From Candidatus Iainarchaeum sp. (GTDB taxonomy: Archaea > Iainarchaeota > Iainarchaeia > Iainarchaeales > JAXPJC01): a stretch of DNA of 29,556 nt. The stretch covers positions 1-29,556 of the forward strand of contig JACPJC010000001.1 of the NCBI GenBank assembly GCA_016187745.1, read 5' to 3'. Every line of letters begins with the position of its first letter. Within the stretch, counting starts at the first letter, position 1. Shown one piece after another: positions 1,811 through 25,563 of this stretch. A model generated the notes under the pieces. It did no database searches. It saw only the letters and a program-made list of their open reading frames with translations, and was not told where the DNA came from. Made by a program: the position numbers and the translations under genes.

Positions 1811-3682
1811 CTACGCCGCATCTGTTCCCACATCCTCTGTTTTGACGCGCTTCTGCAATTTGTACATGTCAATTATTTCCTTTACAGTTGTTGCCTCTTC
1901 CGCCTTCCTGTCAGTGCGCAATTTAATCATCCTCGGGAAGCGCAATGCATATCCGTCAGTGTCTTTTTCATTCCTGCCCGCAGTGTGCATGGGGCTTTTT
2001 GTGATTTCGTCAGCCCTTGCCTCAATGACATATTTCGGCTCAACCCACACATCCGGCTCCAAAAGCGAATCAACCCTCGCAGGCTTATTGCCCCTCTTTA
2101 TTTTGTCAAGCATTTTTTTCATTTCAACCATGCCCTCTTCCGTAAATCCGCTTCCAACCTTCGCAAGCGTCCTGAATTTGTCCTCCTTCTCATCATAAAC
2201 CCCGCTCAATAATGCGCCCAGTCCGAATTCAGTGCGCAATCCCTTCCCTTTATAGTAACCTAAAATCACAACATCAACGCTGTCCTCAAGCGCGCCCCTG
2301 TAGGAGCGCTTCAGCTTTATCCACGCGAATTTTCGCGCACCGGCAATGTATTTTGCATTCAGGTCCTTTGCAATTATCCCCTCAAGCCCCTTTGAAATGC
2401 TGTCCTCGAAGAATTTCTCCATTTCCTTCGGGCTGTCAGTTATAATGCTTTTTGTAAGCTCAATTGCATCCCCCTTCTTTATTATTTTATCAAGCTCCCT
2501 GCGCCTTTCGGAGAAAGGCAAATTCATCAGATTTTTTCCATCCCTGTACAACAAATCAAAAACAAAAAGTTTGAGGGGATATTCCTCAGCCTTCTCCGCA
2601 ATGTCATATTTTCTCTTGCGCTGCATCGTTATCTGGAAAGGGAAGTATTCCCCTGTTTGTTCGTTCACTGCAAGCGCCTCCCCCTCAAGGATTGCGTCCT
2701 TCGCATTTATCTGCCTGCGCGCAGCTTCTATTATTTCAGGAAACATGCTTGTCATGTTCTCCTGGCGCCTGCTGAAAAGCAGTATTTCATTACCTTTTTT
2801 GTGCACTGCAATCCTGAAGCCGTCGTATTTTGCCTCGCACGCGCACTTTCCGATCTTCCTTATTATTTCCTCTGAGCTCGGAAGCCTTTCCGCAAGGCTC
2901 GGCCTTATCGGAATTCCCGGCTCAATGTCAATTTCCCTGAGCCCATCCAAGCCCTTCTGCTTCAGCAGTTTTGCAACATTCCCCAGATCCGGGCGCACAT
3001 TGTACTTGTCCTCAATCATCTCGCGCAGCCTGAATTTCAGCCTCCTTTCAATTTCCTCATTGCGCTTCTCCTCTTTCGTTTCCTTCAGCTCTTTTTCAAT
3101 TTCCTGCATTATTTTTTTGTTTTTTCGCAGCTCGCCAATAAAATTGATTGCAAACGCGTCCATTATTGTGGGATCCCCGACCCCGAGGCGCAAATTCTGC
3201 AGGGGAATGCGCACAAGGTATTTCGCCTCAACCGGCTTTGCGCTGTTCAGAAGCTCCGCAAGCAGCTTTATTTTTGCCTCCTGGCTGCCTGTCCCAGAAG
3301 CCTTTGAAATTTTCATCAGATTCTCATAAACCTTCAGTACTGTGAGCTCCGCGCTGAACAATGCGGACTGCCTTTTTTTCCCTGAAACCTTCTCCGCAAC
3401 AAGGCCCAGGTCCCCAAGCTCCTTGAACAATTTCTCAATCTCCTCGCGCGTGTAGCCCGAAACCTTGCTCAAAGCTTCCATTACGAATTTCTCCCCCATC
3501 CCCACATCTATCTGCATATAAGCGGGCGCAAGCTGGCCCTGGCACAGGTAAATTATTTTTTCAATCTCATTCGCATTCGCCTCCTTGAACAGCCCTGACA
3601 GCAAATCAGTCATCTCCAGGCGCGAGGGCGTTGCCTCAAGCCTCTCAAAGTATTCGCTCAACTTCCTGAACTGCATGCTCAT
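1811..3682 (-). CDS. lig: ATP-dependent DNA ligase (archaeal type)
   Basis: EAKYDGFR adenylation motif, EGIIAK, WIKLKRSY, ALRFPR; N-terminal DNA-binding domain. Confidence 0.97.
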   Translation of the reverse strand: MSMQFRKLSEYFERLEATPSRLEMTDLLSGLFKEANANEIEKIIYLCQGQLAPAYMQIDVGMGEKFVMEALSKVSGYTREEIEKLFKELGDLGLVAEKVSGKKRQSALFSAELTVLKVYENLMKISKASGTGSQEAKIKLLAELLNSAKPVEAKYLVRIPLQNLRLGVGDPTIMDAFAINFIGELRKNKKIMQEIEKELKETKEEKRNEEIERRLKFRLREMIEDKYNVRPDLGNVAKLLKQKGLDGLREIDIEPGIPIRPSLAERLPSSEEIIRKIGKCACEAKYDGFRIAVHKKGNEILLFSRRQENMTSMFPEIIEAARRQINAKDAILEGEALAVNEQTGEYFPFQITMQRKRKYDIAEKAEEYPLKLFVFDLLYRDGKNLMNLPFSERRRELDKIIKKGDAIELTKSIITDSPKEMEKFFEDSISKGLEGIIAKDLNAKYIAGARKFAWIKLKRSYRGALEDSVDVVILGYYKGKGLRTEFGLGALLSGVYDEKEDKFRTLAKVGSGFTEEGMVEMKKMLDKIKRGNKPARVDSLLEPDVWVEPKYVIEARADEITKSPMHTAGRNEKDTDGYALRFPRMIKLRTDRKAEEATTVKEIIDMYKLQKRVKTEDVGTDAA

Positions 3683-3859
3683 ATTTAGCGCATTTTGGTT
3701 TAATTAAGTTTTGCTGGGCAACCAAAACCCATTTAAACAGCTTTGACAACAGGTTTTATTGATGAACATGAAAAGTGATTGCCTTCCAGCAGCTTGAAAT
3801 TGCTTCTGATTTTAATTACTTATTTAAACCATCTGCAATTCCATATTTATATACTGAAA

Positions 3860-4003
3860 GGGGCATTAGTCTAGCCTGGTCCAGGATTTGCGCTTTGGGA
3901 AAGCCTTTTTCTTTAGGAAAGAAAAAGCCTTGGGAAAAAGAAACTCGGGCTGAAAGGGCTTTCAAATCAGCGCACGACTCCGGTTCAAATCCGGAATGCC
4001 CCA
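3860..4003 (+). tRNA. tRNA-Pro(TGG) with 69-nt intron at 37/38 (3900..3968)
   Basis: Acceptor GGGGCAT/ATGCCCC-A; anticodon stem TGCGC/GCGCA; loop TT-TGG-G|intron|A; T arm TCCGG-TTCAAAT-CCGGA; TTTG/CAAA central helix of a BHB-like motif. Confidence 0.93.
3903..3943. repeat. REP/MITE-like hairpin element, copy 1 (inside the tRNA intron)
   Basis: CTTTTTCTTT-AGG-AAAGAAAAAG 10-bp hairpin followed by CCTTGGGAAAAAGAAA; similar to the copy at 4008..4059. Confidence 0.6.
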
Positions 4004-4007
4004 CACA

Positions 4008-4131
4008 GCCCCTTTTCTTTTTGGAAAAAAGAAAAGGCCCTGGGGTTCAAAAGAAAAAACGTTCAGGTTTTACCCCAAAAGAAAATACATTTGAGGTTAC
4101 CCAAAGAAAAAATAAGTTTCAGGAAAAGAAA
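4008..4131. repeat. REP/MITE-like hairpin element, copy 2, plus degenerate tail repeats in the inter-tRNA spacer
   Basis: CCTTTTCTTTTT-GGA-AAAAAGAAAAGG 12-bp hairpin, then CCCTGGGGTTCAAAAGAAAAA, then AGGTTTTACCCCAAAAGAAAATA and AGGTTACCCAAAGAAAAAATA. Confidence 0.6.
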
Positions 4132-4216
4132 GGGGCGTTAGTCTAGCCTGGTAGGACATGCGCTTGGGGTTCCAAACAACATGTGCATAACCGGGGTTCA
4201 AATCCTCGACGCCCCA
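4132..4216 (+). tRNA. tRNA-Pro(GGG) with 12-nt intron at 37/38 (4170..4181)
   Basis: Acceptor GGGGCGT/ACGCCCC-A; anticodon stem TGCGC/GTGCA; loop TT-GGG-G|TTCCAAACAACA|T; T arm CGGGG-TTCAAAT-CCTCG; 73 nt after intron removal. Confidence 0.9.
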
Positions 4217-4228
4217 CTAAGTGAGAAA

Positions 4229-5020
4229 ATGAATTTCAATAATGCAAAAAGGGTTGTCGTGAAAATAGGGACAAATGCGCTGATGCGCGGCAATGAGCCT
4301 GACACTGGAATCATGGCAGGGCTTGTGGATGATTTGTGCAAGCTGCGCAGGGGAAGAAAGGAAATAATCCTTGTTACCAGCGGGGCAGTGGGCTTCGGTA
4401 AAGGAAGATTAAACTATGAAGGAAATTCTGGTGGAGTGATAATGCAGCAGGTTTTTGCAGCCGTAGGGCAGAATCTGCTGATGCGGAGATACACGGCATT
4501 GTTTGATTTATATTCCCAGCCGATTGCGCAGGTGCTCCTGACGCAGAGGGATTTCGCCAATAAGAATTCCCTGGGCAACCTCAGGAATACGCTGAACAAG
4601 CTGCTTGATCTTGGGGCAATCCCCATCGTTAATGAGAATGATGTAACTGCAACAGAGGAGCTTGCATCAAAGAAGGCCTTTTCGGACAATGACATGCTTG
4701 CGGCATTGGTCGCAAAGACGATGAATGCGGAATTGCTTGTTGTGCTTACTGATGTTGATGGGATATACAGCACAAACCCCAAAACAGATAAAAAAGCCGC
4801 TTTGGTCAGGGAAATAAGTTCCCTAACCGCTCTTGAGCGGATTGCGGCAGGCGGCAAGTCAAAGCCCGGCAGGGGCGGAATGAAAACAAAAATAGATGCA
4901 GCAAAACTCGCATGCAAATCGGGCATAGCGACAGTGATAACAAGAGCAACACACACGGCGCTTTCGGAAATTTATTCCGATAAATTCTCAGGCACAACAA
5001 TTCTCCCAAAGAGTTTATAA
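4229..5020 (+). CDS. proB: Glutamate 5-kinase (no PUA domain)
   Basis: VVVKIGT, VTSGAVGFG, AAVGQNLL, PIVNENDV, FSDNDMLAA, GRGGMKTKI. Start moved to ATG 4229 because the ORF-track start lies inside the tRNA. Confidence 0.93.
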   Translation: MNFNNAKRVVVKIGTNALMRGNEPDTGIMAGLVDDLCKLRRGRKEIILVTSGAVGFGKGRLNYEGNSGGVIMQQVFAAVGQNLLMRRYTALFDLYSQPIAQVLLTQRDFANKNSLGNLRNTLNKLLDLGAIPIVNENDVTATEELASKKAFSDNDMLAALVAKTMNAELLVVLTDVDGIYSTNPKTDKKAALVREISSLTALERIAAGGKSKPGRGGMKTKIDAAKLACKSGIATVITRATHTALSEIYSDKFSGTTILPKSL

Positions 5021-5046
5021 ATAACTTCCAACTAAGTGATTAGCAT

Positions 5047-6519
5047 ATGGCGCAGGAAAACCAGAAGGAAGAGAAAATCACCTTCAATATTGACAAGGAC
5101 AGGAACTTCTCCGAATGGTTCACTGAAATAATCAAGGTGGCGGAGCTTGCGGATATGCGCTACAATGTGAAGGGCTTTGTCGTTTTCCAGCCCTGGAGCG
5201 TGCTTGCAATGGAAGCGATGTACGACTTGTATGAGAGGGCGCTGCAAAGAAAGGGCCACAATCCCATGTGGTTTCCGGCGGTAATTCCCGAAAAGAATTT
5301 TTTCCTTGAAAGGTCGCATGTTGAGGGCTTTGCGCCTGAGGTTTTCTGGATAACAGAGCACGGCGCAAGTGAGAAATTGGAAGAGAAACTGGCGCTGCGC
5401 CCGACTTCAGAAACCGCAATCTACCAGATGTATTCCCTCTGGATACGCTCCTACAAGGATCTGCCCTTCAAGGCATATCAGCGCGCGCAGGTCTGGAGGC
5501 ATGAAACAAAGGCAACAAGGCCTTTTTTGAGAAGCCGCGAATTTTACTGGATTGAGGCGCATGATGTTTTTGCAAATGAGGAAGGCGCAATGAGGCAGGT
5601 CCATGAGGATATGGAAATTGCTGAAGAAATTCTTCACAAAAAATTCGGGGTTCCATTCATTTTTTTCAAGCGCCCCCAGTGGGACAAGTTTGCAGGCGCT
5701 GTTAATACCTATGCTGCAGATGCGATAATGCCCAATGGAAAAATTGTCCAGCAGCCTTCCACGCACCTCCTTGAGCAGAATTTCTCAAAGGCATTTGATG
5801 TGAAATTCAGGGATTCTGACGGGAATGAGAAATATGCATACATTACCTGTTACGGCCCCTGCATTTCGCGCATGTTCGCAAGCGTAATAGCGATGCACGG
5901 CGATTCCAAAGGGCTGAAATTCCCTTTCGAAATTGCGCCGAAGCAGATTGTCATTGTGCCGATTGCCGCGGATAAAAATAATGCGGTCATGAAGAAGGCG
6001 CAGGAGCTTGCGGATTTACTTTCCGCAAATTACCGCGTTGAAATCGATGCAAGCGAAAAAAGCCCCGGGGAGAAATTCTATTACTGGGAGATGAAGGGAG
6101 TTCCCCTGAGGATAGAGCTTGGCCCGAAGGAAGTAAAGGAAAAGAAGCTGACAATTTACAGGCGCGACACGAACAAGAAGGAAGCGGTAAGCGAGAAGCA
6201 GTTGCTGAAGTTTGTTGAAAGCTCCGCAGGGGAAATTACAGAAAATCTCTGCGCCTCGGCGGACAAATATTTCAGCGGAATAATAAAGGATGCCAAAAGC
6301 CTTGATGAGATAAAATCTGCGGTTGACTCCGGGAAAATCGCACGCACGAATTTCTGCTCAACAGAACTTGGCGGAGCAAAATGCGCGGAAACGATTGAAA
6401 AGCAGCTGGGCGCGAGGGTGCGCGGAACGCGAGTTGACAAAAGTGAAAAACCCTCAGGAAAATGCGCAGTCTGCGGGAAAGAAGCGAAAGAAGTCGTTTA
6501 TATTGCGAATGAGTATTAG
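5047..6519 (+). CDS. proS: Proline--tRNA ligase, archaeal/eukaryotic type
   Basis: FSEWFTEII, LALRPTSET, RHETKATRPFLRSREF, EMKGVPLRIELGP; C-terminal Zn domain ending ...IANEY. Confidence 0.97.
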   Translation: MAQENQKEEKITFNIDKDRNFSEWFTEIIKVAELADMRYNVKGFVVFQPWSVLAMEAMYDLYERALQRKGHNPMWFPAVIPEKNFFLERSHVEGFAPEVFWITEHGASEKLEEKLALRPTSETAIYQMYSLWIRSYKDLPFKAYQRAQVWRHETKATRPFLRSREFYWIEAHDVFANEEGAMRQVHEDMEIAEEILHKKFGVPFIFFKRPQWDKFAGAVNTYAADAIMPNGKIVQQPSTHLLEQNFSKAFDVKFRDSDGNEKYAYITCYGPCISRMFASVIAMHGDSKGLKFPFEIAPKQIVIVPIAADKNNAVMKKAQELADLLSANYRVEIDASEKSPGEKFYYWEMKGVPLRIELGPKEVKEKKLTIYRRDTNKKEAVSEKQLLKFVESSAGEITENLCASADKYFSGIIKDAKSLDEIKSAVDSGKIARTNFCSTELGGAKCAETIEKQLGARVRGTRVDKSEKPSGKCAVCGKEAKEVVYIANEY

Positions 6520-6986
6520 CCCACATAGCGGAGCTCATTCTCATTGCCCAAATCCAGCTCCATTATCTCCACAAGCGAATTGTCCAGCCGCTTGCTGTAC
6601 ATTCCGACAAACTCAAACCCGAATTCCCTATAAAGCGCTTTAGCCTTTTCATTTTTTTCCTTCACAAGCAATTGTATGCGCCTGCAGCCAGCGCCCTGCA
6701 TGAATTCAACCGCAAATTTCAGCAGTTCTCTTCCAATTCCGCGCGCGCGGAATTTCTCCTTTACCTCCAATCCATTCAATTTTCCCAGTTCCCCTGAACT
6801 GCCAATCTCAAAATCCACAAACCCCGCAAGTTCCTTATTGGCAACGGCCTTGTATATGAAATAGTTCTTCCTTCCTGTCCTTTCCCTTAATTTTTCAGGA
6901 GTGGCATTCATGTAGGGAAACTCCCTCATGATGAGCCCTGAAATTTCCCTGAAGTCGGAATCCTGCGCCTTCACAATCTGCATCAT
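6516..6986 (-). CDS. GNAT family N-acetyltransferase (RimI-like)
   Basis: VKEKFRARGIGRELL (motif A) and NEKAKALYREFGF (motif B). Confidence 0.9.
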   Translation of the reverse strand: MMQIVKAQDSDFREISGLIMREFPYMNATPEKLRERTGRKNYFIYKAVANKELAGFVDFEIGSSGELGKLNGLEVKEKFRARGIGRELLKFAVEFMQGAGCRRIQLLVKEKNEKAKALYREFGFEFVGMYSKRLDNSLVEIMELDLGNENELRYVG

Positions 6987-7666
6987 TTCACGCTTTTAAT
7001 GAACTGCTGTATTTCCTCCAGGGAAACAGCGCAGCCCCCGTATTTTGCAGCATAGAGCGCTGCTTCAAGCGCGAGCCTGGTTTTTTTGAGCTCCGGCTCA
7101 AAATAGCCCTTCTCATACGCATATGCAATAAGCTCAACGCTTCTCACGATTTTCACATTGACAAACATCCCCTGCAGTTCAGCAAGCTTTTCCGCATCAA
7201 TATCAACCTTGCTTTCATACTTCTCCTCCATCCTGTCCCGCAACCTGTAAGCGTCTTCCACAAGCATGCGCATTGTCCTCTCATCCATAACTATCAGGTC
7301 CGCATTTATTGAATTTGCAAGCGCAAGGGTTTCAATTTCCCCTGCGTGCACCAAACTTATCTTCTCTCGGGAAATCTCAAACAAGTTGTTTGCAAGCCCT
7401 TCTATGATTTTTGCGGAATTTTTTGCAGCGGCATTCAGTTTCATGATTTTTATTGCGCCTGAATCAACAGCATCCTTTATGCGCAGCGCATTAAGCTCAA
7501 AGCGCCTTATCTGCAGGGGATGGGAAACACTTTCATAATAAACGCTCTCGGGAATTATCAATTCGGCATTCTTCTCGGAAGAAATTGCGGAAATTATCCT
7601 CATCAGGCAGTTCTCGGAAACCGAAATCAATGAGCTGGTGTCAAACACAAGTTTCGCCATTTTCAT
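6983..7666 (-). CDS. PIN-domain protein (DUF3368-like), putative toxin/RNase
   Basis: Acidic PIN residues in VFDTSSL, AGEIETLALA and IVMDERTMR; 4-nt overlaps with both neighbours. Confidence 0.75.
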   Translation of the reverse strand: MKMAKLVFDTSSLISVSENCLMRIISAISSEKNAELIIPESVYYESVSHPLQIRRFELNALRIKDAVDSGAIKIMKLNAAAKNSAKIIEGLANNLFEISREKISLVHAGEIETLALANSINADLIVMDERTMRMLVEDAYRLRDRMEEKYESKVDIDAEKLAELQGMFVNVKIVRSVELIAYAYEKGYFEPELKKTRLALEAALYAAKYGGCAVSLEEIQQFIKSVK

Positions 7667-8223
7667 TTCCCCAGCGCCCTTTTCAATTCCTTCAGCCTTT
7701 CCCCGATGCCGAATTTTATTGCTTCCTCGTCATGCATCTTCGTAGCGCCAATGTACTGCAATAATTCCTTTTTGTCTGCCCCCGTCAATTCAGCAGCCCT
7801 GCTCAATGATATTCCAAAGGAATATGCGCGCGAAGCCTGCTTTATGCGCGCCTTGTCATATGTTCCCTGGACATAATTTCCAAGTTCGGAATCAACAGCG
7901 GCAATTCCCCCAATCACCCCGTGCAGCGCCTTCTCAAATCCCTTCAAATCGTTTTTCCCAATCATCGCAAGCGCATTGCCCAAATCCTTCCCAATCTCGG
8001 CCCTGAGCGCATCCCATTTCCCGCTCTCAGCAATATGCACCTTTGTGAGCAGCTTGTGCAGGGAATATGCAATGAGAGAAACCTCGCTCAGCAGGTGGCT
8101 TGATTTCAGCGCCGCAAGCCGGATTGCGTCATTGCTGATGTCCTTCAGCTCTATTATGCTCTGCTTTCCAAAAGCGCCTTCCATGCGCCCTGCAAACTCA
8201 AGCAGCTTTGAATTCTGCTCCAT
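7663..8223 (-). CDS. Helical protein with C-terminal UPF0175-like HTH, putative antitoxin partner of the PIN gene
   Basis: GISLSRAAELTG motif; translationally coupled to the PIN gene. Confidence 0.65.
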   Translation of the reverse strand: MEQNSKLLEFAGRMEGAFGKQSIIELKDISNDAIRLAALKSSHLLSEVSLIAYSLHKLLTKVHIAESGKWDALRAEIGKDLGNALAMIGKNDLKGFEKALHGVIGGIAAVDSELGNYVQGTYDKARIKQASRAYSFGISLSRAAELTGADKKELLQYIGATKMHDEEAIKFGIGERLKELKRALGK

Positions 8224-8286: not shown

Positions 8287-8358
8287 TGGGCCTGGGCGGA
8301 ATCGGACCGCCGAGCTCCGCCGTGTGAAGGCGACGTCATGCCATTAGACCACAAGCCC
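8287..8358 (-). tRNA. tRNA-Val(CAC), no intron
   Basis: Reverse complement GGGCTTGTGGTCTAATGGCATGACGTCGCCTTCACACGGCGGAGCTCGGCGGTCCGATTCCGCCCAGGCCCA folds as a cloverleaf; T loop reads TCCGATT. Confidence 0.92.
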
Positions 8359-10459: not shown

Positions 10460-10894
10460 TTAGACTATAATTCTTTTTATTTTCCCTATGGCCTTTTCTG
10501 TTCTGTCATATAATTCAGCAAGGTTGTGCTCAAACTTTACCCTTGTCACATTGTACTGCACTTCCTGCCTTATCCCGCGAAGCAGGTCAAAAAGCGACAA
10601 GTCATCAGAGTTGAGCAGCCCTTTCTTCTCATACTTCTCTTCAATATATTTCTGCAGGCAGTAATGGCTCTTTTCCTTTATGCCGTCAAAATAAAGCAGG
10701 GCTCTTGCCGCATGAAAAATCGCATTGTACATGGCAATTGAAGCCATTTCCTTCTTTTTGATATTTATCAAATCAAATGCTTCATTCAGGAAAAATTCCG
10801 CCTGGTTCATGTCCTGCAATGCCAGGCTCTTGCTTTTGGTTATTCTCTTAAGCAGGCCCTTCTCAAAACATTCGTCAACCTCACTCAATGCCAT
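10460..10894 (-). CDS. HEPN domain protein (toxin-like), module 1
   Basis: YNAIFHAARALL...KSH...RQEVQY, archaeal HEPN family; overlaps the MNT gene. Confidence 0.85.
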   Translation of the reverse strand: MALSEVDECFEKGLLKRITKSKSLALQDMNQAEFFLNEAFDLINIKKKEMASIAMYNAIFHAARALLYFDGIKEKSHYCLQKYIEEKYEKKGLLNSDDLSLFDLLRGIRQEVQYNVTRVKFEHNLAELYDRTEKAIGKIKRIIV

Positions 10895-11438
10895 CGCCCC
10901 ATAAAATAATTGATTTGTTCTTTATTTGGCTTAACAATTCAATATTCTCTTTTTCCATGCTTCTGACCTTCTGCCCTGTCAATATTATTAACTGTATTTC
11001 TTTTTTTAATTCATTGCTGAGCTCCCTTTTAATGCCGCTTAGTTTGAGCATATCCTGCTTGCTTTCAAGAAGGATAGCAAGATCAATGTCGCTATCGCCT
11101 GTAATTTTCCCGCTGGCTGCAGTGCCAAACAAATATATGCCTTTTGGATCCAGCTTAATCAGCTTTGCAAATGCTTTGCAGCACATTATCTTATTAATGA
11201 AAATTATGCTGACGCATTTTGCTGCCACCGGCGAGCTGTAATTCAATTCAAAAAGCACCTTGTTTTTCTGGCTTCCCGTTAAAACAATCCTTCGCTCAGC
11301 AAGTTTTTTCATTATTTTGTGCACACTGCTTGGCGCCAGGCCAGTTTTTTCGGCTAGCTCCCTCAGATAATATTTTCTTTCCAAAAGCGCCTCCAAAAGC
11401 AAAAAAGCGTTTTTATCCAGAAAATCCACGCCGCTCAT
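10881..11438 (-). CDS. HTH + minimal nucleotidyltransferase (MNT antitoxin), module 1
   Basis: YLRELAEKTGLAPSSVH HTH; LFGTAASG...SDIDL nucleotidyltransferase motif. Confidence 0.88.
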   Translation of the reverse strand: MSGVDFLDKNAFLLLEALLERKYYLRELAEKTGLAPSSVHKIMKKLAERRIVLTGSQKNKVLFELNYSSPVAAKCVSIIFINKIMCCKAFAKLIKLDPKGIYLFGTAASGKITGDSDIDLAILLESKQDMLKLSGIKRELSNELKKEIQLIILTGQKVRSMEKENIELLSQIKNKSIILWGDGIE

Positions 11439-11451
11439 AATAACATATCAA

Positions 11452-11491
11452 TCGTTCACATATAAAAACATTTCGTTCACACAAGAAAACA
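11452..11491. promoter_or_regulatory. Tandem 19-bp operator-like repeats over the module 1 promoter
   Basis: TCGTTCACATATAAAAACA (11452..11470) and TCGTTCACACAAGAAAACA (11473..11491), 21-bp period, overlapping a minus-strand TTTTTATA box. Confidence 0.65.
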
Positions 11492-11519
11492 ACTTATTCA
11501 CTCCGTATTGGAAGACAAG

Positions 11520-11624
11520 TGCACGGGGGCGGATTCGAACCGCCGAACGCACTAAGCGACTGGGTTTCCTAGTTGAAGATTAAACCCCTAGGCCCAGTGG
11601 ATTTGGCCGCTTTCCTACCCGTGC
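11520..11624 (-). tRNA. tRNA-Leu(TAG) with 21-nt intron at 37/38 (11566..11586)
   Basis: Acceptor GCACGGG/CCCGTGC-A; stem CTGGG/CCCAG; loop CC-TAG-G|GGTTTAATCTTCAACTAGGAA|A; canonical BHB (CCTA/TAGG helix, two 3-nt bulges, GTT/AAC); long variable arm; A73. Confidence 0.92.
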
Positions 11625-11684
11625 ATATAAAATAATTACAACAAGCAGCATTTAAATAAATGTCCGTATTTGTTCATATGCATT

Positions 11685-12512
11685 ATGGAAAGCCGGGAAA
11701 AAAAGCTCAAGCTGCTTGAAAAAAATCTGCGGGAAATGCGGAGCGTTTTAATCGCCTTTTCGGGGGGAGTGGACAGCACTTTCCTGCTAAAGGTCGCGCA
11801 TGATGTTCTGGGAAAAAACGCAGTTGCAGTTACCGCCGCTTCGGAAACCTACACAAAATCAGAATTAAGCGATGCAAAAAGCCTTGCAAAGCGGATTGGC
11901 GCAGGGCACATCGTAATTAAAACAAGCGAGCTCAGCATAAAAGGCTTCGCGGAAAACACTGCGGAAAGGTGCTATTTCTGCAAGAGGGAACTGTTCTCAA
12001 AGCTTGCTGAAATTGCAAAGGCAAACAAAATCAATTTTGTCCTTGACGCGTCAAACTATGATGATTTGGATGACTACAGGCCGGGAATGAAGGCTGCAAG
12101 GGAGCTTGGCATAAGAAGCCCCCTGGTTGAAGCAGGGCTGGCAAAGCAGGACATAAGGGGGCTTTCCAGGCGGCTTAAGCTTCCGACATGGGACAAGCCC
12201 TCAATGGCCTGCCTCTCATCAAGATTTCCATACGGCAGTGAAATTAATGCAAGAAAGCTCGGGATGGTTGAGAAGGCGGAGGAGATTTTAAGAAGGATCG
12301 GGCTGAAGCAAGTTAGGGTCAGGCACCATAATGAGATTGCAAGGATTGAAACAGGCAGGCAGGAAATGAAACTGCTTCTGAATCCCCAATCGCTTGAAAA
12401 AGTCGTAAAAGAATTCAAAAAGCTCGGCTTTGCATACGTTACGCTTGATTTGCAGGGCTACAGGAGCGGCAGCATGAACGAAGTCCTGGAGGCTGGGAAA
12501 AATGGGCCCTGA
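11685..12512 (+). CDS. larE: LarE, ATP-dependent sulfur insertase for the nickel-pincer nucleotide cofactor
   Basis: PP-loop AFSGGVDS, RCYFCK, DDYRPG, KPSMACLSSRFPYG, LDLQGYRSGSMN; first in-frame ATG at 11685. Confidence 0.93.
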   Translation: MESREKKLKLLEKNLREMRSVLIAFSGGVDSTFLLKVAHDVLGKNAVAVTAASETYTKSELSDAKSLAKRIGAGHIVIKTSELSIKGFAENTAERCYFCKRELFSKLAEIAKANKINFVLDASNYDDLDDYRPGMKAARELGIRSPLVEAGLAKQDIRGLSRRLKLPTWDKPSMACLSSRFPYGSEINARKLGMVEKAEEILRRIGLKQVRVRHHNEIARIETGRQEMKLLLNPQSLEKVVKEFKKLGFAYVTLDLQGYRSGSMNEVLEAGKNGP

Positions 12513-13236
12513 TGACATCAGAAAATTATTGAAGGATTTGAGGGGCAAAAAACTGGGCATTGAAGGCGCAATGCAGAAACTGAAAGTTCTGCCTTTCGAG
12601 GATCTGGGGTTTGCAAAGATTGATAACCATCGCGCCATCAGGAGGGGCTTTCCCGAAGTGATTTTATGCAGCGGGAAAACAGAGAAACAGATACTCGGGA
12701 TAATAAGGAAAAGCGGCTGCTTTGTTGCAACAAAGGCGAGCAGGAGAATATTTGAGGAAATCAGGCGCTTCAGGAAGGACGCGGAATTCAATGAAGCTGC
12801 CGGAATGGTATTTTCAAAACAACAAAAGAGGAAAATCACGAAGCGGGAAAAAATTCTTGTTGTGAGCGCAGGCACCTCAGATATACCAATAGCAGAGGAA
12901 GCCGCAGTGACCGCGGAGCTTATGGGAAACAGTGTTGAAAGGCTTTATGATGTGGGAGTGGCAGGAATACACAGGCTGTTCGGCAATAAGGAAAAATTCT
13001 TCAGGGCAAATGTGATTGTTGTTGTTGCGGGGATGGAGGGCGCATTGGCAAGCGTTGTTTCAGGCATTACAGACAGGCCGATCATTGCAGTGCCCACAAG
13101 CGTTGGATATGGCGCAAGCTTCAAAGGGATAGCGCCATTGCTTACAATGCTCAATTCCTGCTCCCCCGGGATTGCTGTTGTGAATATAGACAACGGCTTC
13201 GGCGCAGGCTACATGGCAAGCCTGATAAATAAGTGA
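12502..13236 (+). CDS. larB: LarB, NaAD carboxylase/hydrolase (AIR carboxylase-like)
   Basis: RRGFPEV, SAGTSDIPIAEEA, DVGVAGIHRL, AGMEGAL, PTSVGYG, MLNSCSPG, VVNIDNGFGA. Confidence 0.95.
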   Translation: MGPDDIRKLLKDLRGKKLGIEGAMQKLKVLPFEDLGFAKIDNHRAIRRGFPEVILCSGKTEKQILGIIRKSGCFVATKASRRIFEEIRRFRKDAEFNEAAGMVFSKQQKRKITKREKILVVSAGTSDIPIAEEAAVTAELMGNSVERLYDVGVAGIHRLFGNKEKFFRANVIVVVAGMEGALASVVSGITDRPIIAVPTSVGYGASFKGIAPLLTMLNSCSPGIAVVNIDNGFGAGYMASLINK

Positions 13237-13248
13237 GAAAGTGAGAGC

Positions 13249-14406
13249 ATGAAAATCGCATATCTTGACTGCTTTTCTGGGATTTCCGGGGACATGTTCC
13301 TGGGGGCGATGATTGATGCGGGCCTGGATCTGAATGAATTGAAGCGCGAGCTGAAGAAACTGAATCTTAAAAATTATGAAATAAAAACAAAAAAGGCAAA
13401 AAAGAACGGAATCCTTGCAACAAAATTCGATGTGATTGCAAAGGGCAGGCAGCACGGTGCAAGCCTCAGGAAAATAATGGCCCTTATAAATAAGAGCAGG
13501 CTTGGGGAGGATGTGAAGGAAAAGAGCAGGGAAATCTTCATGCGCATTGCAAAGGCCGAAGCGAAAGTCCACGGAACTGCCTTGAGCAAAATCCATTTTC
13601 ATGAGATTGCAGCAATTGATTCAATAATTGACATTGCCGGCGCGGCAATTGCAGTAAAACTGCTAGGGCTTGAGAGGATTTATGCATCTCCCCCTTCCAT
13701 TGGCTCAGGGTTTGTGAAATGCGCGCACGGGATTCTTCCAGTCCCGGGGCCTGCAACAGCCGAGCTGCTGAAAGGAATTCCTCTTGCTTCGGGCTCAGCG
13801 CGCGCAGAGCTTGTTACTCCGACAGGAGCTGCACTGCTTGCAGCGCTTGCAAGCAAATTCGGAGAAATGCCATTAATGAAAATTAAGAGCATTGGCTATG
13901 GGGCGGGCAGGGCTGAATTGGAGCATCCGAATGTGCTGAGGGTTTTTATTGGAGAAGCGGATTCCGAAGGTGAATATGAAAATATAAAACTGATTGAAAC
14001 AAACATAGATGACATGAATCCCGAGATTTATGATTATGCGATGGAGCGGCTTTTCAGTAAGGGCGCGCTTGATGTTTTTCTAACCCCAATATATATGAAA
14101 AAGAGCAGGCCTGCAGTTAAGTTGAGCGTTCTTGCAGATGCAAACAAACTTGATGATATTGTTGAAACGATATTCAATGAAACATCAACATTCGGCGTAA
14201 GGATAAGCGATGTCAAGCGGAGAAAACTTAACAGGGAAATTATAAGCGTTAAAACCAGATATGGCGCAATCAGGATAAAAGTTGGAAGCATGAATGGGAA
14301 AATAAAGGGCATTTCCCCGGAATATGAGGACTGCAAGCGCGCAGCAATCAAACACAACGTGCCTTTAAAGGCGGTATATGATGAAGCAAAGGGGAAATTA
14401 CTTTAA
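13249..14406 (+). CDS. larC: LarC, nickel insertase (single uninterrupted ORF)
   Basis: YLDCFSGISGDMFLGA, HFHEI, AHGILPVPGPAT, ELVTPTGAA, ETNIDDM, MKKSRPA, PEYEDC. Confidence 0.95.
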   Translation: MKIAYLDCFSGISGDMFLGAMIDAGLDLNELKRELKKLNLKNYEIKTKKAKKNGILATKFDVIAKGRQHGASLRKIMALINKSRLGEDVKEKSREIFMRIAKAEAKVHGTALSKIHFHEIAAIDSIIDIAGAAIAVKLLGLERIYASPPSIGSGFVKCAHGILPVPGPATAELLKGIPLASGSARAELVTPTGAALLAALASKFGEMPLMKIKSIGYGAGRAELEHPNVLRVFIGEADSEGEYENIKLIETNIDDMNPEIYDYAMERLFSKGALDVFLTPIYMKKSRPAVKLSVLADANKLDDIVETIFNETSTFGVRISDVKRRKLNREIISVKTRYGAIRIKVGSMNGKIKGISPEYEDCKRAAIKHNVPLKAVYDEAKGKLL

Positions 14407-23901: not shown

Positions 23902-24582
23902 ATGCAGGAAGATTCGGCAAGAATAGGCAATGCCATAAAGCGCCTTGAGAAGGCGCTGAACAAGGCAAGCCTTGCGCTCGGGAAGAATGCTGAGCTTAAC
24001 GCAATGCTCAAGGAGATTTATGATCTGGCTTCGGAGATTGAGCAGATTTCAGAGACAAACCCCGCAGTTTCCAATTCCCTGCAAAAGGCGCTTGAGGAGC
24101 GCTGCATTGTGGACTTGTATGTCAAATTTGAGAATGCCCTTACAGAATTGAAGTCAACAGCAAAATCATTTGAAGAGCAGGCAATAAAGGCATCGCTCTT
24201 CCTTGAGAACTACAGGAACGCGCGCACTTACAATTTTGCGGATGAAAATGCCTCCAGGGAATTTGTTTCAAGCCTTTACGAGCTTTTCGGGATTGAAACC
24301 GCATATCTCAAGCCCGAGATGGTAGGGCTTTCGGACTTTACAGCAATAGCAAAGGAGCTGAAGCTGCAGGAGGAAGGCGCAAACACGATAAAGGTCCCCA
24401 TAACGCAGATTCCCGCGCTTATTGGCAAGCTGCAGAAAAGCGCGCTTGCAAAGAACTTCAGGCTTGAGAATGAGCTGGTTAAAATAGTGTTCAGGCAGCC
24501 GAATGTCCTGTTTGTGGAAGCGGACAGTTCCAAAATAAAGCGCCTGGACAGATTGTGCAAAACACTCGGCGGAAGCTACTGA
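23902..24582 (+). CDS. Hypothetical protein with N-terminal coiled coil
   Basis: Clean ORF with GGGAG ribosome-binding site and BRE/TATA-like GAAACCCTTAAAAA upstream. Confidence 0.75.
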   Translation: MQEDSARIGNAIKRLEKALNKASLALGKNAELNAMLKEIYDLASEIEQISETNPAVSNSLQKALEERCIVDLYVKFENALTELKSTAKSFEEQAIKASLFLENYRNARTYNFADENASREFVSSLYELFGIETAYLKPEMVGLSDFTAIAKELKLQEEGANTIKVPITQIPALIGKLQKSALAKNFRLENELVKIVFRQPNVLFVEADSSKIKRLDRLCKTLGGSY

Positions 24583-25010
24583 TTTAATTTGCACAATCCC
24601 CTTATTTTCCCTGTGAATTCCTTCGCTTTCCCGATTGAGGTTTTTGCTTCCCCCTCGCCGATTGATTTTATTTCCCCATAAACAACATCGTGCCTCCTTA
24701 CCCTGTATCTGTTGAATGCATAAATCAGCTGGCCTGATTCGGCAGGCAGCATTGCCGCGCAGAACTGCACAACAGCAACATGGTGCGATTCGCTGAGTGC
24801 GCGGTAGCCCTTTGCAGCCATAAGCGCCCTGCCTGCAGAGAGCATTGCATTGTAAGCAGCGACAAATGCCCAGTCGGCGTGCCCTGCATTTAAAATATCT
24901 GCTGCCGCAACAAGGTCCTTCTCTGCGGATTTTATGAGCTCTTTCGCAGAATTTGCATCAGCGTCAACTTTTTCTATCAAATGCTTCTGCAGCAGTTCTT
25001 TCAAATCCAT
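24576..25010 (-). CDS. HEPN domain protein (toxin-like), module 2
   Basis: AYNAMLSAGRALM..KGYR...HH...RRHDVVY. Confidence 0.87.
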   Translation of the reverse strand: MDLKELLQKHLIEKVDADANSAKELIKSAEKDLVAAADILNAGHADWAFVAAYNAMLSAGRALMAAKGYRALSESHHVAVVQFCAAMLPAESGQLIYAFNRYRVRRHDVVYGEIKSIGEGEAKTSIGKAKEFTGKIRGLCKLNQ

Positions 25011-25563
25011 TTTCTTCCCCCAAAAGCCATATTTTCCTGTTTTTTATCACCGCACTGACAAATGAACTTTTCTCATTAAGCTTTTTAATGAGCTCATTCC
25101 CGCTCCACAATATGAAATTTATCTCCCTGCCGCTCTGCTCCTGCGCTTTCATGCAGGCAGAGGCTATTTCATTCTCATTGGCAGAGCCTATGATCAGCAA
25201 ATCAATGTCGCTTTTTTCCCTGAAGGCGCCTTTTGCAAGGCTGCCATAGATGAATGCGTATTTTATCCCCCTGATATTGGAAAGCCCTGACTTCAGCTGC
25301 GCAAATATGCCCTCGGTTTTCATGTAAAGGGATTTCAAGTCATCAAGAAAAGGGCTTGCGCTGTTTGTGCTGAATACAGCAAGATTGCCGACCCTTTCGG
25401 ATTTCAGAATTCCCAGCTCAAGCAGATTATCAAGCTCCCTTTTTGCTTCTGAAACTGACACATCCGCCCTGCGTGCGATTTCCCTTAAATGCAGGCCGTT
25501 GTTGAGCAGCACAATCCCCAGCACCTTTACTTTTGCGCGGGAGTGCATAAGTTTCTCTAACAT
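24964..25563 (-). CDS. HTH + minimal nucleotidyltransferase (MNT antitoxin), module 2
   Basis: HLREIARRADVSVSEAKRELDNL HTH; IYGSLAKG...SDIDL. Confidence 0.9.
   Translation of the reverse strand: MLEKLMHSRAKVKVLGIVLLNNGLHLREIARRADVSVSEAKRELDNLLELGILKSERVGNLAVFSTNSASPFLDDLKSLYMKTEGIFAQLKSGLSNIRGIKYAFIYGSLAKGAFREKSDIDLLIIGSANENEIASACMKAQEQSGREINFILWSGNELIKKLNEKSSFVSAVIKNRKIWLLGEENGFERTAAEAFDRKS

Follow-up and report, generated by a model that had tools for sequence, protein, structure and literature searches.

Within a 29,556-nucleotide (nt) stretch of DNA from Candidatus Iainarchaeum sp. (contig JACPJC010000001.1, referred to here as the window), two proline transfer RNA (tRNA) genes, tRNA-Pro(UGG) and tRNA-Pro(GGG), are followed directly on the forward strand by proB, encoding a glutamate 5-kinase, and proS, encoding a prolyl-tRNA synthetase (ProRS). 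On balance, we lean towards the view that all four genes belong to a single unit, which would be transcribed from a predicted promoter at 3821-3830 through both tRNAs, proB and proS, with a partial stop at a T-rich hairpin between the tRNA genes and an internal promoter for proS. The initial annotation of this DNA had described the four genes as adjacent and co-oriented on the forward strand, and this description, together with the gene identities and both anticodons, was borne out by profile scores and in-silico splicing. The features concerned, with protein lengths in amino acids (aa), are as follows.

3821-3830, forward: predicted TATA-type promoter TATTTAAACC; matrix score 12.5, the maximum in the window
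3860-4003, forward: tRNA-Pro(UGG), here tRNA #1; 69-nt intron at 3900-3968 (position 37/38); CCA not encoded
4006-4042, forward: T-rich hairpin with 17-nt arms that are 88% complementary, from inverted-repeat and fold analysis; holds TTTTCTTTTT at 4013-4022
4132-4216, forward: tRNA-Pro(GGG), here tRNA #2; 12-nt intron at 4170-4181; CCA not encoded
4217-4228, forward: 12-nt spacer CTAAGTGAGAAA, the 3' trailer of tRNA #2, with a Shine-Dalgarno-like GTGA core
4229-5020, forward: proB, glutamate 5-kinase, 263 aa; amino-acid-kinase domain only, without a PUA domain
5014-5023, forward: TATA-like box TTTATAAATA; matrix score 8.2; overlaps the proB stop codon and is centred 28 nt before the proS ATG
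5032-5039, forward: second copy of CTAAGTGA, Shine-Dalgarno-like, 7 nt before the proS start
5047-6519, forward: proS, archaeal/eukaryote-type prolyl-tRNA synthetase, 490 aa

Promoter and terminator motifs around the tRNA-proB junction

The discriminator base of tRNA #2 is A4216 and the ATG of proB stands at 4229, so that the two genes are separated by just the 12 nt that the initial annotation had reported. Its further statement, that proB has no room for a TATA box of its own, also held when we scored the region with a 10-nt promoter matrix. The matrix was derived by expectation-maximisation from 23 regions preceding genes, each with 45 nt or more of non-coding DNA; tRNA #2, proB and proS were excluded. 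The consensus of this matrix, TATTTAAATC, is centred 25-27 nt upstream of the ATG in genes that appear leaderless; in leave-one-out scoring 21 of the 23 training regions reached at least 4.6 and 19 reached at least 6.3, compared with a median of 0.6 and a 95th percentile of 6.9 for a null set of 57-nt coding windows. By this measure, the matrix reaches at most 0.1 upstream of tRNA #2 and at most -1.4 in the 57 nt before proB, and at no point on the forward strand between 3916 and 4504 does its score rise above 4.

The box before tRNA #1, by contrast with these low values, has its centre about 34 nt upstream of the 5' end of the tRNA, implying a leader of about 9 nt. The 14-mer at 3818-3831 that contains it is 93% complementary to 3696-3709, a box that lies about 25 nt before the start of a divergent DNA ligase gene, the two being near-perfect inverted copies of one sequence (ACTTAWTTAAACCA); because of this box-to-ATG spacing, we suggest that the ligase starts, leaderless, at its second ATG (3676) rather than at 3682. 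A further strong TATA-like box, CATTTAAACA, is found on the forward strand at 3730-3739 (score 9.8), about 125 nt before tRNA #1, where it serves no evident gene and could give rise to a longer precursor or to a small RNA.

Potential stop signals are distributed unevenly across the cluster. No T-run of at least four occurs within the 70 nt 3' of tRNA #2, whereas such runs do trail tRNA #1 and the tRNA gene at 11520-11624. After tRNA #1, TTTTCTTTTT is located 9-19 nt past the end of the tRNA, and the hairpin that holds it may act as a leaky terminator, or as an attenuator, ahead of tRNA #2. The intron of tRNA #1 carries a near copy of this hairpin, with a T5 run (3901-3931). Since tRNA #1 can only be produced if this copy is transcribed, tracts of the kind do not stop transcription absolutely here.

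On these motif predictions, then, tRNA #2 and proB lie on the same strand with neither a promoter nor a terminator motif between them, and since proB has no recognisable promoter of its own and tRNA #2 is followed by no T-run of at least four, a co-transcript that is cut by tRNA 3' processing is the simplest reading. This retains the central proposal of the initial annotation, that proB mRNA is probably released from a pre-tRNA transcript, and moves the start of the unit, which most likely lies at the promoter of tRNA #1 and not at tRNA #2. A second amendment is that proS has a TATA-like box of its own (5014-5023, scoring 8.2, which exceeds the 95th percentile of the coding windows), a predicted internal promoter from which a near-leaderless proS mRNA might be made.

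The signals for translation form a pair of their own. GTGA lies at 4222-4225, at -8 relative to proB, and GTGAT lies at -11 relative to proS. The 8-mer CTAAGTGA occurs as an exact match only twice in the window, at 4217-4224 before proB and at 5032-5039 before proS, and a copy with one mismatch, ATAAGTGA, precedes larC at 13229-13236, where it is followed by GAAA as it is before proB; CTAAGTGA is probably a local ribosome-binding context. A Shine-Dalgarno-like GTGA that stands without a TATA box is a feature that proB shares with larC (13249) and with the gene at 588-1547.

Scans for bacterial sigma-70 promoters and hairpin terminators are unsuited to an archaeon, gave results that were not above those for shuffled sequence, and were discarded, as was a candidate tRNA-like processing signal before proS (4985-5049), which showed no significant fold (z = 0.90).

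A model for transcription and processing

We infer a transcript structure, with its processing steps and its leaky hairpin, in which RNA polymerase would start from the TATA box at 3821-3830, read tRNA-Pro(UGG), get past the T-rich hairpin and continue through tRNA-Pro(GGG), proB and proS. The release of archaeal tRNAs by RNase P, splicing endonuclease, tRNase Z and the CCA-adding enzyme is established biology. RNase P would trim the 5' ends of both tRNAs, splicing endonuclease would remove both introns, and tRNase Z would cut after each discriminator, CCA being added afterwards. Cleavage behind A4216 would give proB an mRNA whose leader, 12 nt long, contains the ribosome-binding site. proS would be translated from the shared transcript and probably also from a transcript of its own, starting from the box at 5014-5023. 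The predicted outcome is co-expression of two tRNA-Pro species, the synthetase that charges them and the enzyme for the first, committed step of proline synthesis; sensing of proline is not implied, since co-transcription brings co-expression and not feedback.

Two intron-containing tRNA-Pro genes

Because of its 69-nt intron, tRNA #1 is missed by default tools: it was called neither by a default ARAGORN run over the window nor by Rfam, whether the whole window was searched at the gathering score or 3700-4300 was searched at E<=1, tRNA #2 being the only match in the latter search. An intron-permitting ARAGORN run recovered the gene with its intron wrongly placed, and splicing out 3900-3968 in silico gave a 75-nt product that ARAGORN labels tRNA-Pro(tgg). 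The intron occupies the canonical 37/38 site, where it forms a bulge-helix-bulge of regular shape (a 4-base-pair helix, UUUG/CAAA, with 3-nt bulges GGA and UCA), adjoining the anticodon stem UGCGC/GCGCA on one side and an intron helix on the other; the fold of the precursor under these constraints has an energy of -49.5 kcal/mol, against -54.8 for the unconstrained minimum. tRNA #2 scores 48.1 bits on the Rfam tRNA model (gathering score 29), and removal of 4170-4181 leaves a 73-nt product labelled tRNA-Pro(ggg), the bulge-helix-bulge in this case being relaxed, with three of four pairs in its central helix. Once their bulge-helix-bulge introns are removed, both tRNAs have a cloverleaf and an NGG anticodon together with G37 and A73, features that we take to include tRNA-Pro identity elements; by wobble rules, the pair would presumably read all four proline codons.

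We set aside the labels that ARAGORN gave in intron mode ('ggg' for tRNA #1 and 'Val(aac)' for tRNA #2), in which the introns are misplaced, and the 4-base anticodon that it gave tRNA #2 by default, preferring in each case the canonical 37/38 placement. Inspection by eye of the 69-nt intron for a C/D-box guide RNA revealed CUGA and no C box, and the idea was dropped. Open reading frames (ORFs) that span the tRNA genes (3775-4146, forward; 3816-4004, reverse) are absent from the protein collection and were treated as spurious.

The spliced tRNAs are identical at 58 of 75 aligned positions and the first 25 nt of the two genes are 96% identical, so they look like diverged duplicates. Two similar T/A-rich hairpins (of the CCTTTTTCTTT...AAAGAAAAAGG type) lie at 3901-3931 in the tRNA #1 intron and at 4006-4042 after tRNA #1, and the spacer at 4041-4055 resembles the anticodon-loop/intron region of tRNA #2 at 4165-4179 (87%); these resemblances may be debris of a tRNA gene duplication. 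Candidate tandem repeats in the A-rich spacer were rejected as low complexity, as TRF finds none there and the units of about 27 nt are only 68% alike.

proB and proS encode a PUA-less glutamate 5-kinase and an archaeal-type prolyl-tRNA synthetase

ProB scores 250.4 bits on TIGR01027 (cut-off 186), covering model positions 1-254 of 363, and the best score for a model other than glutamate 5-kinase is 60.9 bits, for isopentenyl phosphate kinase. PF00696 (residues 7-238) is its sole Pfam domain, and its closest solved structures are the E. coli glutamate 5-kinase entries 2w21 and 2j5t (residues 5-242, E ~1e-41). The KxGT, TSGA, NEND, DND and GGMxTK motifs of the E. coli enzyme, which we take to be nucleotide- and glutamate-site motifs, are matched in ProB and are invariant or nearly so across a clade of 11 PUA-less sequences. 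No C-terminal PUA domain was found in ProB, which stops after the kinase domain; the PUA domain is an optional part of glutamate 5-kinases, typical of E. coli-type enzymes and not a defining feature of the family, in which PUA-less structures have been solved (2ako, 251 aa; 2w21, 259 aa). As to the start of the gene, an alternative ATG at 4181 falls within tRNA #2, and the closest homologue, P0002, starts level with the ATG at 4229. ProRS scores 474.6 bits on TIGR00408 (cut-off 437) and carries PF00587, PF03129 and PF09180, which are the class II core, the anticodon-binding domain and the ProRS C-terminal domain, respectively; its gene begins after a gap of 26 nt from proB.

Comparison with other genomes

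A search of species-representative genomes, using an alignment of 11 PUA-less ProB sequences as the query, returned at least 80 proB loci, the best of which is 45% identical; the lineage of the window and its near relatives were not among the matches listed. At the 80 proB loci among these matches, ProRS was found in none of the fetched flanks of about 10 kb (tblastn, E<=1e-5), and tRNA-Pro occurred in the flanks of four, adjoining proB in none. Nor was a tRNA of any kind present within 1.5 kb of proB at these loci, apart from a call at L067, which overlaps in antisense orientation, was made by ARAGORN and is taken as spurious. When 41 neighbouring ORFs of ten archaeal loci were scanned, an aldehyde-dehydrogenase-family gene (proA) was seen to abut proB directly in nine, while at the tenth, L008, the neighbour of proB encodes 434 aa without a Pfam match at E<=1e-12. 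The usual archaeal context is therefore proB-proA, and the arrangement in the window is atypical.

The relatives of ProB comprise one close sequence, P0002 (85% identical), then about ten PUA-less proteins of about 260 aa (44-48%), labelled 'archaeon' where named; the remainder of the 120 listed are PUA-bearing bacterial proteins (42-46% identity). In a quick IQ-TREE analysis of 91 rows (the window ProB, ten short proteins and all 80 listed loci, none dropped), ProB and P0002 fall in a clade of ten short proteins with an SH-aLRT of 99. Its nearest neighbours in the tree are P0009 and two sequences from Bathyarchaeia (SH-aLRT 90, not starred). Together these form part of a larger cluster, itself poorly supported, that also takes in Methanosarcinaceae, Methanomassiliicoccales, Methanophagales and a small number of bacteria. 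The initial annotation had raised a bacterial origin for ProB; the quick tree instead places it in a PUA-less 'archaeon' clade beside the ProB of Bathyarchaeia, and these sequences give no sign that proB is of recent bacterial origin.

The named relatives listed for ProRS (61-71% identical) and for the DNA ligase (58-69%) belong to Candidatus Diapherotrites / Iainarchaeum, and the ProRS matches also include some Micrarchaeota, Pacearchaeota and Altiarchaeales. The gene content of the window is archaeal (ATP-dependent DNA ligase, a GatD fragment, Alba, ZPR1; GC ~46%), and this content, together with the ProRS and ligase relatives, therefore identifies the source as a DPANN archaeon, one near Iainarchaeota/Diapherotrites. 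Three relatives of the DNA ligase, of about 955 aa (P0295, P0308 and P0361), carry intein/homing-endonuclease domains (PF14528, PF14890) that the ligase in the window does not have.

Synteny in close relatives could be approached indirectly, since identical, odd base-pair (bp) values for the longest contig of different protein clusters suggest that these share a contig; such coincidences do not give gene order or distance, and an absent match is weak evidence. By this measure, ProB P0002 and ProRS P0248 agree, both having a value of 15,997 bp from NCBI; P0248 clusters at 90% identity with P0125, and P0125 is 93% identical to the ProRS of the window. These matching values suggest that the closest relative has proB and proS on one 16-kb contig. 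Among the relatives listed, the values for DNA ligase and ProRS coincide in nine (130,351; 17,722; 39,156; 25,831; 27,715; 133,704; 29,093; 20,330; and 307,472 bp), those for DNA ligase and PUA-less ProB coincide in three (34,954; 135,422; and 28,275 bp), and all three proteins coincide only for the window's own contig of 119,976 bp. Because of these coincidences, the ligase-proS neighbourhood looks old in this lineage, and proB often appears to be nearby. The complete tRNA-proB-proS order was seen only in the window.

One ProRS relative, P0152 (66%, on the 20,330-bp contig), has an annotated N-terminus, MSGVWFKSRFGIFYS, preceding the usual start, that could be read as the translated T-arm of a tRNA (TGGTTCAAATC...) about 10 nt before proS, a spacing that would parallel the one between tRNA #2 and proB; the acceptor stem that this implies misfits tRNA-Pro, and the case was not used as evidence. 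The N-terminal extensions of other ProRS relatives are mostly rich in Lys and Glu and natural.

Weighing alternative explanations

Several observations weigh against a single proline-related transcript. Promoters and terminators were all predicted from motifs within a single window of 29.6 kb, with training regions of our own choosing for the matrix, and two of the 23 training regions scored below 3 in leave-one-out, so the matrix does miss some promoters. TTTTCTTTTT could stop transcription efficiently, in which case tRNA #2 and proB would need a promoter invisible to the matrix. T5 runs number 36 in the 25,354 nt of gene sense strand, a lower frequency than in the other strand-bases, gene antisense included (149 in 33,758 nt). 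Such runs are nevertheless present within proB and proS, so T-runs predict poorly in either direction here. The three-way linkage of tRNA-Pro, proB and proS is found at none of the 80 proB loci among the matches listed, and none of the 120 listed ProRS relatives has the contig value of 34,954, 28,275 or 135,422 bp that PUA-less ProB shares with the DNA ligase in three relatives. Finally, as the initial annotation had said, the window contains neither proA nor proC (no proA-like aldehyde-dehydrogenase or proC-like pyrroline-5-carboxylate-reductase domain is present in the 34 ORFs scanned), which leaves a role for ProB in proline synthesis in this genome as a prediction. A complete ProABC set is annotated in 24.1% of Diapherotrites genomes in one survey (PMC8407392), and it is thus plausible that proA and proC lie elsewhere in this genome.

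If the hairpin did end the tRNA #1 transcript, the downstream genes would be transcribed independently, with tRNA #2 and/or proB depending on a promoter that is weak or departs from the consensus and lies in the A-rich spacer (for example at ~4082-4092 or 4107-4116) or within the tRNA gene, and their spacing would reflect the compaction of a small DPANN genome. This is an unlikely alternative that nevertheless deserves to be taken seriously, as it accords with the position of TTTTCTTTTT 9-19 nt past tRNA #1, with the two of 23 regions of known context that also lack a scoring box in leave-one-out, and with the genes that overlap or abut all through the window. However, the scores before tRNA #2 (0.1) and proB (-1.4) are at or under the coding median of 0.6, the gap between tRNA and proB is just 12 nt and is filled by a ribosome-binding motif with no TATA box, and a box at 4107-4116 would put the start within the tRNA, because the spacing in leaderless genes is 25-27 nt. 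A different and rather improbable explanation is that the juxtaposition is without pathway meaning, proB having been rearranged away from proA, as the remnant of a lost pathway or with another function, to a position that is accidental. The lack of proA and proC in the window, when proB abuts a proA-like gene in nine of ten archaeal loci among the matches listed, would fit such an accident, as would the complete ProABC set found in just 24.1% of Diapherotrites genomes in the same survey (PMC8407392). Against it, ProB is intact, scores well over its family cut-off and keeps motifs of E. coli glutamate 5-kinase that are conserved across its clade; four adjacent proline genes are very unlikely to arise by chance, neither neighbour being found beside proB in the 80 loci listed; and in the closest relative proB and proS apparently still share a contig of 16 kb.

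The initial annotation went further in proposing that tRNA maturation gates proline synthesis, and here it found no backing, as we detected no element that senses proline or charging; no cis-regulatory family of Rfam, T-box included, matches the window at the gathering score, where the only matches are two tRNAs. In one version of such coupling, the folded tRNA-Pro(GGG), which sits 6 nt before the ribosome-binding site, would hold back translation of proB until the tRNA is cleaved; in another, free ProRS or another tRNA-binding protein on the unprocessed transcript would block the ribosome, so that proline supply is tuned without a T-box. What speaks for such coupling is the geometry, namely a 12-nt leader with GTGA at 4222-4225 and the cognate synthetase downstream. 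E. coli ThrRS represses its own mRNA via a tRNA-like leader. We nonetheless strongly doubt such coupling here: besides the missing sensor, no significant structure joins the 3' end of the tRNA to the start of proB (4195-4260, z = -0.16), proS has a TATA-like box of its own, and tRNA end-processing is generally constitutive. A more elaborate form, to which we give very little credence, has tRNA-Pro(GGG) acting as an operator in cis, the uncut or ProRS-bound tRNA blocking the ribosome-binding site, so that ProB and read-through ProRS would follow the maturation and charging of tRNA-Pro, with the hairpin as a second, transcriptional valve. If true, this would be an archaeal counterpart of feedback of the T-box or ThrRS type, employing a genuine tRNA instead of a mimic.

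Relation to known systems

A link between tRNA-Pro and the genes for proline synthesis and charging is familiar from Bacillus, in which the T-box, a leader RNA responding in trans to uncharged tRNA, controls proBA, proI and proS. In the window, by contrast, the tRNA is physically part of the predicted transcript, and we know of no use of T-boxes by archaea. Judging by titles and abstracts, no paper among the matches listed in our literature searches deals with a tRNA-Pro/proB/proS unit.

The closest bacterial analogy is the enterobacterial tufB operon, thrU-tyrU-glyT-thrT-tufB, in which one promoter precedes four tRNA genes and then tufB (PMC6134099). It resembles the present locus in having tRNAs directly 5' of a translation-related protein gene, under one promoter, with the mRNA separated by processing (PMC6134099); it differs in being bacterial and in relying on RNase E and RNase P instead of tRNase Z and splicing endonuclease, and its tRNAs are not cognate to an amino-acid theme of the protein, nor does it include a biosynthetic gene or a synthetase. 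In Thermococcus kodakarensis, the 159-nt 5' untranslated region of TK0306 contains a tRNA-Lys described as 'apparently co-transcribed', and RNase Z has been proposed to release a second co-transcript, of tRNA-Arg and a snoRNA (PMC4247193). These cases likewise place an archaeal tRNA and a downstream RNA on one primary transcript with release by RNase Z proposed (PMC4247193), whereas TK0306 has a single tRNA with no functional tie to the helicase gene, and co-transcription is based there on RNA-seq and predicted here.

A match in content is pylTSBCD, an uninterrupted cluster of a tRNA, its cognate synthetase and amino-acid synthesis genes (PMC3941956). That cassette serves the 22nd amino acid with a whole pathway, whereas the unit in the window concerns a canonical amino acid, includes only the first of three enzymes, and has the order tRNA-biosynthesis-synthetase with two isoacceptor tRNAs. 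Here the tRNAs, the synthetase and the first enzyme are contiguous, with neither proA nor proC in the window; the proline unit would function like an incomplete cassette and falls outside the pylTSBCD type. The locus joins a predicted tRNA-led operon with a tRNA/synthetase/biosynthesis cluster for a canonical amino acid, represented by its first pathway gene only. If the proposed transcript is real, this would be a compact archaeal operon in which tRNA processing enzymes set the 5' end of a metabolic mRNA, and in which tRNAs, a synthetase and a gene from a canonical amino-acid pathway come as one package, a layout best known so far from the pyrrolysine cassette. It would also provide a convenient test case for the translation and decay of tRNase Z products in archaea (5'-monophosphate, 12-nt leader), and it bears on how pathways are organised in DPANN archaea with patchy biosynthetic capacity. 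It opens no long-standing question, and nothing found indicates a new regulatory principle.

Other features of the window

A third intron-bearing tRNA gene lies on the reverse strand at 11520-11624; it has the long variable arm of class II and is Leu(UAG)-like by eye. Default ARAGORN and the whole-window Rfam search both missed it, it scores 41.4 bits on Rfam when 11440-11700 is searched alone, and the label Pro(agg) given by ARAGORN in intron mode is a mislabel.

tRNA-Val(CAC) at 8287-8358 (reverse) has no T-run in its 63-nt trailer and is followed on the same strand, at 6516-8223, by three overlapping genes, two without an assigned family and one for a GNAT acetyltransferase, which may together form a second tRNA-led unit; a TATA-like box (8.3) 27 nt before the first ATG after the tRNA speaks against this.

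On the forward strand, 11670-14406 encodes in a run a PP-loop ATPase, an AIR-carboxylase-like protein and LarC. These three resemble a LarE/LarB/LarC set for the nickel-pincer cofactor; a user enzyme of the LarA type was not recognised in the window. Two pairs of genes for a HEPN-domain protein and a winged-helix/nucleotidyltransferase protein, toxin-antitoxin-like in character, are located on the reverse strand at 10460-11438 and 24576-25563.

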